A model generated the notes under the pieces. The model was given only the letters and a program-made list of their open reading frames with translations, was not told where the DNA came from and searched no databases. Positions 3,730 through 24,576 of a stretch of DNA of 51,136 nt are shown piece by piece; the stretch's first letter is position 1; the number at the start of each line of letters is the position of its first letter. The position numbers and the translations under genes are program-made. Source of the stretch: a virus (taxonomy: Duplodnaviria > Caudoviricetes); the IMG/VR virus record IMGVR_UViG_3300048861_000266, positions 1-51,136 of that record; one strand, 5' to 3'.

Positions 3730-3978
3730 TCATGGCGTTCCCTTGAGAGTGATGGTCACAGGCCCATGCCGCATGTCGCCGGTCATCGTGCCATCCAGTT
3801 GTTCTTTTTCTTCGGCGCAAAGATTGCGCCACTTGGCGATGGCGAAGTCGCCCTTGAGGACGCCTCGCATGCCGCCTATCTGCGTCGGCCCGACCGAATA
3901 ACCGTTAGAGGCCAACCACGTCTCAGCGGCATGCTTTGCCTCGAATTGCTCTTCCCGGTGAAAAGTGATCGTCGTCAT
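3730..3978 (-). CDS. Hypothetical phage protein
   Basis: ATGA overlap with upstream gene; GGAG SD. Confidence 0.7.
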   Translation of the reverse strand: MTTITFHREEQFEAKHAAETWLASNGYSVGPTQIGGMRGVLKGDFAIAKWRNLCAEEKEQLDGTMTGDMRHGPVTITLKGTP

Positions 3979-4760
3979 TCGGCATGCTCCATTTCCGCCT
4001 TGATCTGCGTATGCTCGCCGGTGTCGATGCGCCGAAAGCAGACGACCCAGACCCACGGGTTTCTGTCCCAGTCTCCGACGCCGTTGATCGAATCCCAGAG
4101 GAGCGCGTAGCCGTTGCGATACGGGCTCTCGGCTTCCTTCAGAGGCCCGCAAAGGAGAGCGCTTTCCGCTTCGCTAAGTCCGCCGACCTCAAACGGTTCC
4201 GTTCCTTCTGCGCGCGCGTCGGCTTCGGTGATGGCCTGAAGTCGCTCGACGCGCACCTCCGTGATTTCGAGCGGGATGCGGCTGGCCCAGCGCGGCATGT
4301 GGATAGATGGGCGCAATTTTCGGTGAGCTGCTATCACGTCGGCAGGGAAACCGTAAGGAAGCTGGTCAAGCGAAATCAAATGACTCCGGGCGGCGTCTGG
4401 ATCCGCCGCGTAAACGGCATACTCCGAATGACCATCGTCGGTTAGGTAATGAGATTCGCGCACCCAGAGCCGATCTCCGGGCTGGCCATAGGGGCACTTC
4501 CGGGCTTCCTCCTCATCGGAGGCGCCGAAGACTTCCGGCCCGGGCTCCTCGTGCCCCGCGCGGTTAATTTGGATCGGGTGGTAGTGCAAGACGACAGGCG
4601 CCCACATCGAGCGCGGCTGCGTTTTGACGATCCGCCGCGTCTGCGTCTTCTCGCCGGCCAGGAGGGCGCGCACCATGGCGCCGTTGAATAGGATGGGGCG
4701 CTCTTTGACCTGGGCGACAGTTCCTGGCGGGGAGGCCGATTCATTCTTATTGCGTGCCAT
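3975..4760 (-). CDS. ASCH-like phage protein
   Basis: ERPILFNGAMVRALLAGEKTQTRR, CPYGQPGDRLWVRE, PSIHMPRWASRI and NPWVWV motifs. Confidence 0.8.
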   Translation of the reverse strand: MARNKNESASPPGTVAQVKERPILFNGAMVRALLAGEKTQTRRIVKTQPRSMWAPVVLHYHPIQINRAGHEEPGPEVFGASDEEEARKCPYGQPGDRLWVRESHYLTDDGHSEYAVYAADPDAARSHLISLDQLPYGFPADVIAAHRKLRPSIHMPRWASRIPLEITEVRVERLQAITEADARAEGTEPFEVGGLSEAESALLCGPLKEAESPYRNGYALLWDSINGVGDWDRNPWVWVVCFRRIDTGEHTQIKAEMEHAE

Positions 4761-8500: not shown

Positions 8501-9172
8501 TTATGCTGCTTCCTTTTGACGTTGGGGGTGGCAGGCGTCGAACTCTTCGATCACCTCGGCGAAATACTCACGAGCGGCTTGCACACGCGCTTGCATCTGG
8601 CGCTCTTTCTCGAAATCGCGCTCGATGACCCAGCTGGTAAGGCGGTGATGTTCGGGAATATGAGAAACGAGGTGCGCCTGCAGGGGCTCAAAACCAATGA
8701 GACGCTCCGGCGTGTCCACGAGCGCGTAATTGACCTCCCATTCATCGGCGCCCCAAAGCCACATGTAGCCGCGCATCTGCCATTCGTAGACGCTGTCCTT
8801 GCAGTCCACCAGCCAGCCGGGAAACGTCTTGGCCGACCACGACGACTTTAGATCGTGCCCGCGGCGCCGCGATGCGTCGTACAGATCGCACTCGCCGGTA
8901 ATCCAATCATTCGAGCGCCGCTCGGCGTTTTTGGTGAGCGCCAAGCCCCGGACGCGATTGAGCAAGGCGATCGATTCGTCTTCGACCGTGAGCCCCTTCT
9001 CTGTCTCTTTGCTGGAGAATTCGAAGTCGATGCCGAAGATCTCTTGCTGGGCCAGTTCCCGGATATAGGTCTTGGCCCCGACCGAAAGAATTTCGCCCGC
9101 CTTGACCGCAGCGGCGGTAGGCGAGGCCATGATCTTGCCGATGCTCGAGCACCTGAATAGAATTTCACGCAT
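8501..9172 (-). CDS. PD-(D/E)xK phage recombination exonuclease (YqaJ/lambda-exo-like)
   Basis: TGECD...DLKSSW...YEWQMRGYMWL; adjacent to ERF and SSB. Confidence 0.8.
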   Translation of the reverse strand: MREILFRCSSIGKIMASPTAAAVKAGEILSVGAKTYIRELAQQEIFGIDFEFSSKETEKGLTVEDESIALLNRVRGLALTKNAERRSNDWITGECDLYDASRRRGHDLKSSWSAKTFPGWLVDCKDSVYEWQMRGYMWLWGADEWEVNYALVDTPERLIGFEPLQAHLVSHIPEHHRLTSWVIERDFEKERQMQARVQAAREYFAEVIEEFDACHPQRQKEAA

Positions 9173-9953
9173 TTTGGGCTCCTTGAATAGCAGCGGCACG
9201 GGCGATTACCATGGCGGAGAAGTCCTTGAAGCCAACTTGGTCGCGCTTGGAACTAAAGATCTTTTGACCTTCGCGACTTATGGTTCGCAGCTCGCTTTCG
9301 GTCTGTGCCCCATCTAACTTTGCGGACCATTCATCCAGCAAGGCGTTGCGGTACGTGCCATCGCCTTCGCCGTCGTTGTCGTCGCCCTTCTCGGAGATGC
9401 CGCACACGGCCTTGAGCGTGTGACGTTCTAGGTAGGTGGTGGTCGAGATGATCGCCTGGATCGTGTTTTTTCCTCCGCTTTCATCAGGCGGCGCATCCAA
9501 GGAAACAGATTTCTCGTGCCCGAGCCGGTGCAGCAGAGTGCAGGTGATGAAGATGCGGCCGGTCTTTTGCTCCGGCGTCCAGCTCCATGAGAATCCGTGG
9601 CGCGAAAGAGCAGGCCCGACCGCCTCGACCACATCGGACAGCTCCGCGTGCTTGTACTGCGTGCGGCCCTTCTGGGTGGCGAAGTCGACCTGCTTGCGCT
9701 TGATGACCTCGACGGCCTCGGCCTTGAATGCGGCGAAGGCTTCGTTAAACGCTTTGCGCGCTTCGTCGGCCTCCCATTCTCGCTGGATCGCCATCATCTC
9801 TTTGATTTGATCCAAAGGGATGCCTTGCTTCACGGCGGCCATCATCATGCCCATGGGCGAGTTGGGGGCCAGCACTGCTATTTGGACGGCGCCAGAATCA
9901 GGCTGTACACCACGCGTCGCAATGGCGCTGTCGAATTCAACGGTATCTGTCAT
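9165..9953 (-). CDS. erf: ERF-family single-strand annealing protein
   Basis: YKHAELSDV...LSRHGF...H..GH...TYLERHTLKAVCGI...DDNDG. Confidence 0.88.
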   Translation of the reverse strand: MTDTVEFDSAIATRGVQPDSGAVQIAVLAPNSPMGMMMAAVKQGIPLDQIKEMMAIQREWEADEARKAFNEAFAAFKAEAVEVIKRKQVDFATQKGRTQYKHAELSDVVEAVGPALSRHGFSWSWTPEQKTGRIFITCTLLHRLGHEKSVSLDAPPDESGGKNTIQAIISTTTYLERHTLKAVCGISEKGDDNDGEGDGTYRNALLDEWSAKLDGAQTESELRTISREGQKIFSSKRDQVGFKDFSAMVIARAAAIQGAQNA

Positions 9954-11702: not shown

Positions 11703-12074
11703 TCAGCAGCTCCAGTCGGGAAAAGTGAGCCTCACAAGCTGCTGCGCCTGGAAGCTCGCTAAGGTCCGGATTGCCTGCGAAACCGCAAGGGATTCCGCTA
11801 GACCGAGCCGCCCGCCGTGCGCCTCGATGAGCAACTCGCCGATCGAATCGTATTTGCCGCACTCGCCGGTCATGGCGCAAAGGCGCGCGGCCGCATCTGT
11901 CGATTGGCCGGACAGCTGTTCTGTTAGGCATAGCTCGAAGGTGTCGATGTGGGCAGTGATGTACGACACCTGTCGCGGATACTCTCGGTCGTAGATGTCG
12001 CGCGCGGGATCCTGCCGAAAGCCCGTAAGCGATTCGGCGCGCGATCGCGTGAGATCGGCACGGATGGCAGGCAT
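11703..12074 (-). CDS. Hypothetical protein
   Basis: AAGGA SD before ATG. Confidence 0.6.
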   Translation of the reverse strand: MPAIRADLTRSRAESLTGFRQDPARDIYDREYPRQVSYITAHIDTFELCLTEQLSGQSTDAAARLCAMTGECGKYDSIGELLIEAHGGRLGLAESLAVSQAIRTLASFQAQQLVRLTFPDWSC

Positions 12075-12106
12075 TAGAATTTCCTTTGATGCTGCCCGGG
12101 AGGTGG

Positions 12107-12176
12107 GCGAGATAGATTCGTGCCGGTTACGGATCCGGCGTCAGTTGGCAGCTGACCGTCTCAAGAACCTATCCGC
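12107..12176 (-). ncRNA. D-armless tRNA-like structure with CUGCCAA loop
   Basis: Closing stem GATAGGTTC/GAATCTATC; GTCAG-CTGCCAA-CTGAC arm; GCCGG-ATCCGTAA-CCGGC arm. Confidence 0.5.
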
Positions 12177-12313
12177 AGCGTGCCAAGCCCATACTTAAAA
12201 GGTCGCGGAGCCCAGGTCTTTATCTCTCGTCGGGCTGCGAGTCGCAGGGCACCCGGGTTGGTTGCGAGGCGCGGATCTGCAATTTCGGCGAGGGCGCCGC
12301 ACTTGGCACGCGC

Positions 12314-12484
12314 TCATCTCTTCAATTTCTCGGCGATCATCGCATCGGCTATCTGGTAGGCCCGCTGCGCAATTTTCTCGGGACGGCCCTCGACGGCCGC
12401 AAATGGATGGGACAATGCATACGCTGCAAACTGGTCGCGCAGGTCGGTGTAAAACGAGGCTTCGCGTTTCTGTTCATCTGCCAT
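12314..12484 (-). CDS. 56-aa phage protein (LRDQFA...AYQIADAM family)
   Basis: TAAGGAG SD; recurring phage motif; too short for the ORF track. Confidence 0.8.
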   Translation of the reverse strand: MADEQKREASFYTDLRDQFAAYALSHPFAAVEGRPEKIAQRAYQIADAMIAEKLKR

Positions 12485-12545
12485 CGAAACTCCTTATTAG
12501 GCGAGGGCGCCGACCTTGCCCGGCTCAGTGGGAAGTCGGCGTTGA

Positions 12546-12636: not shown

Positions 12637-13248
12637 TCACGCCATTGGCATCAGGTAGCCGCGCCCGCCCTCAAATTCAAAACGGGCGGCCGCCGTTGGA
12701 TCTCGGCCGACGAAAAGGACGGCTTCCGGCAATAACTTCAGGAGAGCCAAATATCGTTGTTGGAATTTGGAGCCGTGCACCTCTTGAGAACCGCTCCCAG
12801 TGCCGGTGGCGTTGCACTCGAAGCAGCCGGTAGCGCCCTCTGCGTCCTGTTTTCCGGCTTCGTTCAGGTGGCCGTCACCGTCGCATTCTTTGCAGGTATA
12901 GCTCCACCTGCCGCGGGAGAAATCGCCTTCTCCTGAGCATTCGCCGCAGCGCTCTTTGATGACAAATCCCGAGCCGCGACATTCGTAGCAGACATTTTTC
13001 GGGAGGTCGATCGAGGCTAGAGGAACCGTTGTCGCTTCCTGAATATCGATCGCGGCGATCTTGGCGAACCTCCCGGCCATTTTTTCAGAGGGTTTGTTTG
13101 CAATATTGCCTGCGAGAGGCCGATCCACCGCGATTACGAGATGCCCATTTGTGGCAATCGTCATTCCGTTTTCGATCCAGGGACGCCGTAAGTATTCACG
13201 GTGGTCCCCATCGGTCGCGCAGAAGCGCGTGATGAGCTTTTCGAGCAT
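12637..13248 (-). CDS. Protein with DnaJ-type CxxCxGxG zinc finger
   Basis: CYECRGSG, CGECSGEG, CKECDGDG, CFECNATG; AAGGA SD. Confidence 0.8.
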   Translation of the reverse strand: MLEKLITRFCATDGDHREYLRRPWIENGMTIATNGHLVIAVDRPLAGNIANKPSEKMAGRFAKIAAIDIQEATTVPLASIDLPKNVCYECRGSGFVIKERCGECSGEGDFSRGRWSYTCKECDGDGHLNEAGKQDAEGATGCFECNATGTGSGSQEVHGSKFQQRYLALLKLLPEAVLFVGRDPTAAARFEFEGGRGYLMPMA

Positions 13249-13401
13249 GGCAATCCTTGGGATAAGTGAAGGGGTGGCCGGTGCTGATCTCCGGCGTGCT
13301 AATCGGTGGCAGCGTTTCAGCTTCACCCAGGGTGTGTTTCTCCCGTCGGTATGCCGATTTCGCGTCAATTTCCACATAGCGCATCAGCCTGCGCATTCAC
13401 C

Positions 13402-15279: not shown

Positions 15280-15321
15280 ATATTAGTCCGACTGCTAGTA
15301 GCGGTCAACAGTCGGACTAAT
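15280..15321 (-). promoter_or_regulatory. pL promoter with two operators (OL)
   Basis: TTGACC-17-TAATAT on the minus strand; operators ATTAGTCCGACTGCT (15282-15296) and AACAGTCGGACTAAT (15307-15321). Confidence 0.85.
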
Positions 15322-15664: not shown

Positions 15665-15688
15665 AAAAAACCGCCTCAAAGGCGGTTT
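15665..15688 (-). terminator. Intrinsic terminator (possibly bidirectional)
   Basis: AAAAAA-CCGCCT-caa-AGGCGG-TTT between convergent genes. Confidence 0.8.
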
Positions 15689-16893: not shown

Positions 16894-17814
16894 CTATTTC
16901 TTATTCGCGTCCTCGCCAAAGGCCTGCAGCGGCTCATACATGACAAGAATATTGGATCGCTCGCCCTTTTTCCCAAGAGCAAACACAGCGGCTGTCACCA
17001 GCGCATCGTTCTCCGGATCTGGCCACGGGGTGTACCCTGGCACGCCGCGGTGACTTTTGCCAAATGCCGCCACCGCAAGTTTCTTTAGTTTGTCCGTTTC
17101 CGGGCCGACTTTCGAATCGACGACGGCGAATGCAAACATGTTTGACAGAAAGCAGTAAGCGGTTTTCTCGATACGAATTCCCTTGAAGGTCTCGGGCGGG
17201 GAGGGCGTTTCATAACACGCCAAATTCCCCTTCGACCGCGTCGGCTGCGCACCCGGCAGGGCTGCAGGGGAATCTCCCCAGTTAAGCGGCGGGACACCTA
17301 CGCTGAAAACGCCGGCCTTTATTTCAGGCACGGGCCAATCCAGGCCGCTAGGCGAAAACTTGAATTGCCTCATGCCAGCCTCGTAAAGTGGAACTTCCAC
17401 GATCAGTTGGCTGGCTCGGCGGACGGTCTCTATGAAAGTAAGGGGTGTCTTGATGAAGACTGCGTTGTTGCGGGTTGCAGCGGTAGCTCTCAATTCGACC
17501 ACTTTGCCGGTATCAAATTTGGCTTGTACTACACAGCCGCCAGAAGGGCAGCTCATTTGGCCCTTATCTATGACCAACATCACATCGGTATCGCCAGCCT
17601 TCTTGCGCAAGTACAGTTTTAAGTGTGAAGCGCCCTCATAAGGGAAGGCTTGGTCGATCGTATTCGTAGAGGCGAGCGAAGATAAGAGCGTGGTGATTTC
17701 TCGCATCTCATCCTTCGATTCCGAATTCACCCAGCCTTCGCTATGCGCGGGCTCAATCGAAGCTACGAGCATGGCAAGGAAGCTAGCGACACGCAACAGA
17801 AGATGAGCTTTCAA
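16894..17814 (-). CDS. Secreted/periplasmic protein co-transcribed with cI
   Basis: Signal-like N-terminus; TTGA overlap with the cI stop. Confidence 0.75.
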   Translation of the reverse strand: MKAHLLLRVASFLAMLVASIEPAHSEGWVNSESKDEMREITTLLSSLASTNTIDQAFPYEGASHLKLYLRKKAGDTDVMLVIDKGQMSCPSGGCVVQAKFDTGKVVELRATAATRNNAVFIKTPLTFIETVRRASQLIVEVPLYEAGMRQFKFSPSGLDWPVPEIKAGVFSVGVPPLNWGDSPAALPGAQPTRSKGNLACYETPSPPETFKGIRIEKTAYCFLSNMFAFAVVDSKVGPETDKLKKLAVAAFGKSHRGVPGYTPWPDPENDALVTAAVFALGKKGERSNILVMYEPLQAFGEDANKK

Positions 17815-18521
17815 AGTTTTGTTCCCATCCAGAAAGCTCGGCCGATAACCTCGAAATCCTCGCAGTGAAGGCCGATGTCAATGTCTTCGAAGTCTGGATT
17901 ATCCGATTTTGCGACTATTTCCGCTCCTTTCTTATGGAGCCGCTTCACGAGAAGTTTGCCATCGCATCGGAAGGCATAGATCTTCCCATTGACTATCGAC
18001 TTCGCTTTGACGTTGATGAGGATGATGGACTTGTCTGGAAGCGTCGGCTCCATGCTCTGGCCGTCGACCGAGACGGAAACCGAATGCTCGGCACCCGCAC
18101 CAGCTGAAGCGAGAAAATCGGCGCGGAAGGATAGCCGGCTCTTTTCGTCCTCGCTAAGCACGACGTTGCCTTTACCCGCAGACAGCCGAACGTCAACGCG
18201 GCGAACAGTCACAAATTCAGCGTTGGGATCGTTTTCTGCCGCTCCGGCGATCACTTGGATTTTTTTGGCAAGGTCGCCGCTAATGTCCGCTGGAGTGCAA
18301 TCAAGGAAGTGTGCGAATTTGACAAGCACATCTACGTTTAAGGGAATCCTTCCCTTCAAATATTGACTCAGCGCGCTCTGTCCGAATCCTAGCAAGTGCG
18401 CCGCTGCCTCTTGCGACGAGGGTAATCCCGACGCGCGCTGGCTCGCCTGCCATTCCTTGAAGAGAGTGACGAGGCGGTCTGCGTCTTGCAGTTGAGAGGC
18501 GTTTAGTGGGAGTGCGGGCAT
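17811..18521 (-). CDS. cI: CI repressor (HTH + S24 peptidase)
   Basis: SQEAAAHLLGFGQSALSQYL HTH; DGQSMEP and LVKRL autocleavage motifs. Confidence 0.95.
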   Translation of the reverse strand: MPALPLNASQLQDADRLVTLFKEWQASQRASGLPSSQEAAAHLLGFGQSALSQYLKGRIPLNVDVLVKFAHFLDCTPADISGDLAKKIQVIAGAAENDPNAEFVTVRRVDVRLSAGKGNVVLSEDEKSRLSFRADFLASAGAGAEHSVSVSVDGQSMEPTLPDKSIILINVKAKSIVNGKIYAFRCDGKLLVKRLHKKGAEIVAKSDNPDFEDIDIGLHCEDFEVIGRAFWMGTKL

Positions 18522-18528
18522 GGGCGCA

Positions 18529-18598
18529 ACAATATAAGGACGACTAATGTTTCGCAATTAGTCGGACTGTTGACATCGCAAGCAGTCCGACTAATAAT
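18529..18598. promoter_or_regulatory. OR region with pRM and pR
   Basis: Operators ATTAGTCGGACTGTT (18557-18571), AGCAGTCCGACTAAT (18581-18595) and a half site near 18541; pR TTGACA-17-AATAAT; pRM TTGCGA-17-TATTGT on the minus strand. Confidence 0.85.
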
Positions 18599-24498: not shown

Positions 24499-24576
24499 CG
24501 CGGTGTAGGGAAGTGGCCTATCCCGCTGGGCTCATAACCCGGAGATCGGCGGTTCGAATCCGTCCCACCGCAACCA
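24499..24576 (+). tRNA. tRNA-fMet (CAT), initiator type
   Basis: C1:A72 mismatch, GGG/CCC in the anticodon stem, CTCATAA loop, TTCGAAT, encoded CCA. Confidence 0.9.

Follow-up and report, generated by a model that had tools for sequence, protein, structure and literature searches.

A conserved, knotted RNA element of about 165 nt is encoded on the minus strand of the leftward early region of the provirus studied here, where it runs from AAAUUGCAG to CCGGCAC (roughly positions 12120–12285 of the window, by which we mean the whole 51,136-bp stretch of DNA that was analysed). A preliminary description had presented a 70-nt feature at 12107–12176 as a D-armless tRNA mimic with a Gly(GCC) anticodon-like loop. 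It is very probable that this feature belongs to a real, conserved, knotted RNA family, with borders other than those first drawn: in the first alignment, conservation began about 110 nt upstream of the 70-nt feature and ended right after its second hairpin. From the comparison of homologues, the supposed tRNA look-alike appears to be the last third (the 3′ domain) of a larger RNA, and its "anticodon" loop appears to be a structural clasp that holds the fold together.

The window is a provirus record with an estimated completeness of 94%, and its landmarks are given in Table 1 together with the parts of the element; the promoter sites are consensus matches only. The element lies 5.5 kb beyond the CI gene and about 3 kb past both the terminator that ends the repressor-side transcript and the promoter-like site (possibly pL). 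It is located in a 239-nt gap that separates a 56-aa from a 123-aa ORF, all on the minus strand. We take it to be co-transcribed with its neighbours because the upstream ORF ends just 28 nt before it, and the original placement of a structured RNA on the minus strand, within the leftward early operon, was upheld. Relatives of the 56-aa protein were found in viral contigs at four loci (L002–L005), all lacking the element. The 123-aa ORF matched no Pfam or PHROG family, and the search of viral contigs returned no relatives of either this protein or the 246-aa protein (phrog_37414). The latter carries CxxCxGxG zinc-finger repeats of the DnaJ central-domain type, with a Pfam score of 27.1, under the cut-off of 32.7. 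GC content drops to 0.54–0.57 across the immunity region (14–18 kb). One metatranscriptome run yielded a single 188-nt contig (depth 2.8) at 12295–12482, upstream of the element, and nothing on the element itself, assembled contigs being able to show neither ends nor absence.

Table 1. Positions of the features discussed, in window coordinates unless a locus is named.
Feature	Position	Strand	Details
Integrase-end ORF	1–1203	minus	
Erf gene	9165–9953		in the long leftward operon
123-aa ORF, downstream	11703–12074	minus	start 46 nt after element; relatives in two other loci
Closing stem of the 70-nt feature	12176–12168 / 12115–12107	minus	GCGGAUAGG / CUAUCUCGC; RNAfold extends to 12 pairs
3′ strand of closing stem	12107–12115	minus	CUAUCUCGC; window-specific; outside conserved element
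P5	12122–12139	minus	GCCGG-AUCCGUAA-CCGGC; loop consensus A..(A/C)CGUAA
P4	12140–12156	minus	GUCAG-CUGCCAA-CUGAC; earlier "anticodon arm"
X	12204–12200 / 12170–12166	minus	GACCU / AGGUU; crosses P3; 4–5 bp
P3a	12178–12188	minus	2-bp hairpin GC/GC; 7-nt loop UUGGCAC, partner of "anticodon" loop
P3	12209–12205 / 12176–12172	minus	UCCGC / GCGGA; encloses P3a
PK1, H-type pseudoknot	12210–12241	minus	
S1 of PK1	12241–12238 / 12229–12226		CUCG / CGAG
S2 of PK1	12235–12231 / 12214–12210		GCCCG / UGGGC
A-rich third loop of PK1	12225–12215		AGAUAAAGACC
P1, 5′ hairpin	12243–12281	minus	outer UGCAG/CUGCG; inner 8-bp GCGCCUCG/CCGGGUGC, one C.C mismatch; loop CAACCAAC
56-aa ORF, upstream	12314–12484	minus	phrog_2201 at 1.4e-5; stop 28 nt before element
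246-aa protein	12637–13377	minus	phrog_37414
Promoter-like site	15280–15308	minus	9/12; may be pL
Terminator	15668–15688	minus	9-bp; ends repressor-side transcript
CI-type S24 repressor	17811–18557	minus	
pR-like promoter	18570–18598	plus	strong; 11/12 consensus match
tRNA-Met (CAT)	24500–24572	plus	sole tRNA gene of the provirus; rightward arm, 12 kb from element
3′ module, L059	1445–1522		
3′ module, L061	1145–1222		
3′ module, L062	1182–1218		
3′ module, L063	1122–1221		
3′ module, L064	2409–2524; 2776–2908		

Homologues were gathered with DNA patterns derived from the element, run against IMG/VR contigs, bacterial genomes and metagenomes, with a covariance model (R1) built on five sequences, and with blastn. 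Altogether 42 matches, 35 of them distinct, were obtained, their sources being Burkholderiales prophages, metagenomes and Burkholderia phage phi644-2; the window element itself scores 142.4 bits against R1. Among the bacterial genomes, the patterns matched Paenalcaligenes, Corticimicrobacter, Pusillimonas, Burkholderia cenocepacia and a proteobacterial MAG. Three of the 34 pattern-fetched loci (L027, L033 and L039) gave no R1 match. Locus L023 (29.8 bits) looks like a false match, and L022 contains only the 3′ module described below, placed after a tRNA-like gene. The phi644-2 copy (75.6 bits) was found by blastn in an unannotated gap of 843 nt. A blastn search of 50,697 GenBank phages with the window region gave no match, and both the phi644-2 copy and the 3′ module were found by blastn only with commoner sequence variants as query. 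The family is rare in the genomes sampled, where 22 candidates per genome were scored, with a match in at least 6 of 151 in the family of genome G004, at least 2 of 150 in the family of genome G003 (one being the doubtful L023) and at least 1 of 151 in the order of G004, which is G004 itself. Including the 5′ hairpin, the element measures 157–215 nt, with a long form of about 205 nt. In four loci (L031, L049, L035 and L026) a larger and different 5′ domain (GACCAGACGAGGGACUGGAAAC..., with hairpins of its own) replaces P1, about 90 nt before the core.

The fold deduced from these sequences contains about 40 near-invariant bases and starts with P1. Of 28 sequences, 20 have A-U and 8 have G-C as the outer pair of P1, and its inner stems are wholly different in sequence among members, their complementarity being kept. 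In the pseudoknot PK1 that follows, the loop of S1 pairs (as S2) with the bases just past the invariant GAUAAAGAC. S2 shows double changes in three of its five pairs, with a G.U at its base in 32 of 35 sequences; S1 is the same in all 35, an invariance that is partly ascertainment, S1 and part of the A-rich loop having been fixed by the search pattern, and S1 is kept too in L019, L020 and phi644-2, whose discovery did not depend on that pattern. Helix P3 has double changes in all five pairs and 97.5% of its cells paired. Crossing it is X, with a first pair that is G-C in 19 sequences, A-U in 6 and G.U in 1, and a fourth that occurs as U-A, C-G, G-C and A-U. No nucleotide separates the 5′ strand of P3 from the start of X, which ends 1–2 nt past the 3′ strand of P3; since the linkers at this crossing measure only 0 and 1–2 nt, P3 and X may form a second pseudoknot or may be alternative states of a switch. 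Both hairpin stems of the original feature, P4 and P5, are maintained by compensatory changes in the homologues, with double changes in five of five pairs of P4 and in three of five of P5, where 99.4% of cells are paired. G.U pairs of P5 in L007 and L046 fix the strand. We also considered P5 as a DNA palindrome or operator and rejected this, the loop centre being asymmetric in most members and G.U pairs being present.

Over the 35 distinct sequences, standard pairs fill 95.3% of cells, compared with 83.4% in shuffles and 29–45% with slid partners, changes on both sides are seen in 21 of 35 pairs, and on each of the five measures all 500 shuffles fell short. These counts lean towards S2, P3, P3a, P4 and P5, to which the alignment was fitted; S1, X and the loop-loop pairs were absent from the model that made it. 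More than 50 G.U cells would become A.C on the opposite strand, and the RNA strand was assigned because G.U pairs are mismatches there. A protein-coding reading was discarded: all six frames have stops in 21–35 of the 35 members, and length differences are non-multiples of three. Thermodynamics adds little for the element as a whole, with single-sequence folding at z −1.0 (sense) and −0.4 (antisense) and at −1.5 for the 239-nt gap, so that the case rests on covariation.

The clasp involves the loops of P4 and P3a. The UGCCAA of the P4 loop (12150–12145) is the exact complement of the UUGGCA (12186–12181) in the 7-nt loop of P3a, which lies 35 nt upstream. The three central pairs, in fixed columns, are standard in every one of the 25 rows that have letters, and the same central pairs recur in 24 of the 25 short-form rows with letters, the remaining one (L007) being a double change. 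Short complements arise easily by chance, and we put the weight on switches of class and not on per-row scores. Three classes are seen, UGGCA/UGCCA, UGAC/GUCA (L007) and UUGGG/CCCAA (long forms); in all seven members of the long form, a new hairpin carries UUUGGG in its loop, and the P4 loop has CCCA(A/G). Some sequences (L011 and others) combine UUGGCA with UGCCGA, at the cost of one wobble.

The letters of the 70-nt feature had been read correctly for the most part. The perfect 5-bp stem with its 7-nt loop and the second arm directly next to it are there (P4 and P5, Table 1; no CCA), and the fold as drawn is the minimum free energy structure of the 70 nt (−28.2 kcal/mol, z −3.38, with 1 of 200 shuffles equally good, and z −2.27 for the opposite strand). 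This local fold is real and exceeds chance. As for the closing stem, reported as 9 bp, the letters show 8 pairs with one bulged U. In the homologues it is not kept: over 31 of the 35 rows, the z for pairing of the 3′ tail with the junction ahead of P4 averages about −0.2, with one of the 31 under z −2 and the window itself at −1.7. Its 5′ strand is taken up by two conserved helices, P3 and X, and its 3′ strand found no alignment in L006, L007 or L008. Nor is the loop CUGCCAA universal, members elsewhere carrying AAGUCAC, ACCCAA/ACCCAG (CCCA as aligned) or UGGAAGU. Because the loop pairs upstream and differs among members, a Gly-GCC identity does not appear to be a property of the family.

The last two hairpins also occur as a portable module, composed of ACGG, a 3–4 bp stem with the loop UGGAAGU or similar, a C, and GCCGG-AGACGUAA-CCGGC. 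The matches are short (15.7–28 bits); they have the flanking ACGG in common, and their stems change in a compensatory manner. On the minus strand of L040, three modules (3912–3952, 4089–4219 and ~4263–4306) stand within 450 nt, before, inside and after a full element, with a different P4 loop in each, and in L026 a module is also found upstream of the full element. Outside these loci it immediately follows the integrase gene in Enterobacter phage Arya and in Escherichia phage HeidiAbel_Bas97, and is present in Bordetella phages PHB04 and IFTN2. An origin from attP or a host gene was probed with E. coli genomes, which gave no match at E≤1e-3; at E≤10 there were only six plasmids of about 89 kb and one doubtful chromosomal match. 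In these plasmids, one copy ends 3 nt before tRNA-Arg, within a tRNA array.

The surroundings of the element in its relatives are of two kinds, firstly those of an early operon. All recurring neighbours (CI, SSB, RdgC, Erf, phrog_1376 and phrog_1273) share its strand. Twelve of 41 loci (three near-identical) have a CI-type repressor gene whose end is 0.8–2.5 kb upstream, on the element's strand, and SSB, RdgC, Erf or phrog_1376 genes are found 0.2–4 kb downstream. In L043 the element comes about 700 nt past a promoter-like site that follows the CI terminator. The next start codon is from 46 to more than 300 nt away, the downstream genes differ, and we found no promoter or terminator belonging to the element itself. 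Long lineage-specific hairpins or multi-hairpin domains, mostly lacking a U tract, were observed 5–20 nt past P5 in several groups (L013/L045/L032, L051/L037/L044, L030, L011 and L008).

Secondly, there are tRNA genes. All loci together have six distinct tRNA or tRNA-like genes, and five of these are less than 200 nt from an element. An odd 89-nt tRNA-Lys(CTT) starts 5 nt after it in L006, in L021/L057 it sits between tRNA-Gly and tRNA-Thr, and in L013 a 123-nt tRNA-like gene (4212–4334) lies 170 nt upstream. This last gene and its counterpart in L022 (1427–1531) score 48 and 47 bits with the Rfam tRNA model and are not called by ARAGORN; both contain long insertions, 10–12 more pairs lengthen their acceptor stems, and the L013 gene has a tetraloop hairpin in place of the anticodon arm. 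Such flanking tRNAs are confined to few lineages, most loci, the window included, having protein-gene neighbours. Inspection by eye revealed a hairpin, NCCA and UCAAC-like bases 5–10 nt before the element in L013, L037, L045, L051, L053/L010, L030 and L009, and in L057 the CCA end of the real tRNA-Gly occupies that NCCA place. Two known Rfam RNAs are also found nearby. One, Proteo-phage-1 (RF03044), is an sRNA motif of 82 nt known from phages of Proteobacteria. It is distinct from the element, shows no overlap with it and has no match in the window; it lies on the same strand, 150–250 nt away, in L021 (1843–1920, equal to L057 2297–2374) and L018 (471–549). The Burkholderiales-2 RNA (RF02917) was seen on the opposite strand about 1.1 kb upstream, in L013 (3347–3422) and L049 (1–67).

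The reading that we favour, with a probability of about one half, is that of a structured non-coding RNA of Burkholderiales temperate phages; its release from the early transcript as a stable RNA, our best guess, has a probability somewhat below one half. Phage T4, for example, encodes small stable RNAs in its tRNA cluster. The RNA would be made within the leftward early transcript (the minus strand in the window) and would adopt a compact body held by three long-range pairings, namely the A-rich-loop pseudoknot, P3/X and the loop-loop kiss. RNases that mature the neighbouring tRNAs would excise it from the polycistronic early transcript, and the excised RNA would persist in stable form and act by binding a conserved host or phage factor, presumably through its most conserved parts, GAUAAAGAC in the loop of the pseudoknot and ACGUAA in that of P5; no imitation of a tRNA anticodon would come into play. 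We propose only tentatively this particular course, with excision by tRNA-maturing RNases and a subsequent life as a stable factor-binding RNA. Co-processing by such RNases is plausible given that the element abuts real tRNA genes in relatives. It is this neighbourhood of RNA genes, and the precedent of GOLLD and ROOL, that make us prefer a stable RNA. GOLLD and ROOL are structured ncRNAs, often carried by prophages and often next to tRNA genes, with which co-transcription has been suggested (PMC5737381). The element resembles them in residing in prophages and, in some relatives, beside tRNA genes. It differs in matching no Rfam model, in its length (157–215 nt compared with several hundred), in its Burkholderiales phage hosts and in a fold built on small pseudoknots.

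Lacking its own promoter and terminator, the element would fit a cis-acting role equally well. The most obvious such role, which we consider unlikely, is antitermination, in which the nascent RNA would bind RNA polymerase, or a factor of the Nus type, and let the polymerase read through terminators that precede the recombination genes. Antiterminator RNAs include put of phage HK022 and, as a second example, the Bacillus EAR RNA. The early-left operon carries the element in sense orientation, with the CI repressor on one side and the delayed-early genes on the other; long hairpins often come after it, and in L043 the promoter-like site is some 700 nt away. The put RNA works as RNA in early operons with no dedicated protein, suppressing termination by binding the zinc-binding domain of the RNA polymerase beta′ subunit, and it has a minor-groove triplex and two adjacent stem-loops (PMC9378689). 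P4 and P5 are two abutting hairpins, here within a 165-nt fold, and the A-rich loop of PK1 would suit a triplex. However, put is of about 70 nt and present in two copies, one for each early promoter (immediately behind PL and some 270 nt behind PR; PMC9378689), whereas the element is far larger (165 nt), more knotted and single-copy in six of six complete or near-complete phage genomes, window included (one copy in the 51-kb provirus with filters off). Between the promoter-like site, known by consensus match, and the element there are about 3 kb in the window, where it is the only such site, and about 0.7 kb in L043. A place tight between two tRNA genes (L057), and a 3′ module inside tRNA arrays, do not fit antitermination either.

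A self-cleaving ribozyme that would cut the early-left transcript or the precursor of a tRNA array seems improbable. Phage carriage, a genomic context independent of the neighbouring genes and a compact multi-pseudoknot fold with some 40 near-invariant bases all speak for it. Such traits are typical of small self-cleaving ribozymes. The element, however, matched none of the hammerhead, twister, HDV-like, pistol, hatchet and glmS models of Rfam and offers no nameable cleavage-site signature, and its 3′ module stands alone and in tandem (L040, L026 and L064), unlike a single catalytic core.

An antisense RNA of the immunity type, with a loop shutting down its own operon, is very unlikely. The models here are P1 c4 and P4 CI, small phage RNAs of tRNA-like shape cut from the early transcript by RNase P, whose loops pair with complementary sites in the same transcript. 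The element is located in an early operon beside the immunity region, its tRNA neighbourhood suggests processing of the RNase P type, and the P4 loop and the complementary upstream site change together in three classes. The partners, however, are 7-nt loops 35 nt apart inside one compact fold, which is the geometry of an intramolecular kiss, and 24 of 25 short-form rows share a single loop pair, which would be odd for immunity specificity; the Rfam C4 family gave no match (E≤10).

We give little credence to a riboswitch sensing a metabolite or signal for the downstream genes, in spite of a complex pseudoknotted fold with invariant junction bases in which P3 and X could be mutually exclusive, given that there is no shared expression platform, terminator or helix sequestering a Shine-Dalgarno sequence, that start-codon distance and downstream genes vary, and that the element stands between tRNA genes in L057. 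Least credible, and largely refuted by the comparative data, is the tRNA mimic acting as a decoy of anticodon nucleases or tRNA-modifying enzymes: the likeness of P4 (5-bp stem; 7-nt loop with U second and purines sixth and seventh) followed by the 5-bp hairpin P5 in the manner of a T-arm, and the real tRNA genes adjoining relatives (the odd tRNA-Lys among them), are outweighed by a paired, covarying "anticodon" loop that is replaced in other members, by a closing stem that is not conserved, by the lack of acceptor stem, CCA, D-arm and T-loop (the P5 loop, with consensus A..ACGUAA, being of 8–10 nt and not 7), and by negative results with both ARAGORN and the Rfam tRNA model, ARAGORN and Rfam at gathering score having returned only tRNA-Met in the window and Rfam no tRNA-clan match in 11900–12500 (E≤10).

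The RNA family and its fold appear to be new, although a description beyond the literature searched is possible. Rfam 15 had no match to the element, whether in the window (E≤10) or in 11 other loci (E≤1). We found no published description of it; the main text of two Breaker-lab surveys contains none of the terms looked for, and the supplements of PMC5737381, PMC8632094 and PMC11109978 might list related motifs. Nor did the literature searched mention Proteo-phage-1 by name.

Structured RNAs that lack an explanation are still present in phage genomes. Few of this size carry three crossing or long-range pairings backed by covariation, and folds of this kind usually mean catalysis or tight, specific binding. 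It is conceivable, if doubtful, that we are dealing with a new compact, triple-knotted class of RNA with a biochemical job of its own and a portable 3′ module in the tRNA arrays of phages of Beta- and Gammaproteobacteria; such a class might act as a ribozyme or might take hold of a conserved host machine, RNA polymerase, a tRNA-processing enzyme and a defence nuclease being examples. The work corrects a tempting misreading, the anticodon-shaped loop being probably a clasp, and leaves a family defined by 35 distinct sequences, a secondary structure that can be tested at named compensatory pairs, and a short portable 3′ module that is found in cultured phages of Escherichia, Enterobacter, Bordetella and Burkholderia. 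The position between the repressor and the recombination genes is a decision point of temperate phages, and the element, which in some relatives also has phage tRNAs for neighbours, could bear on early-gene control, RNA processing or counter-defence.
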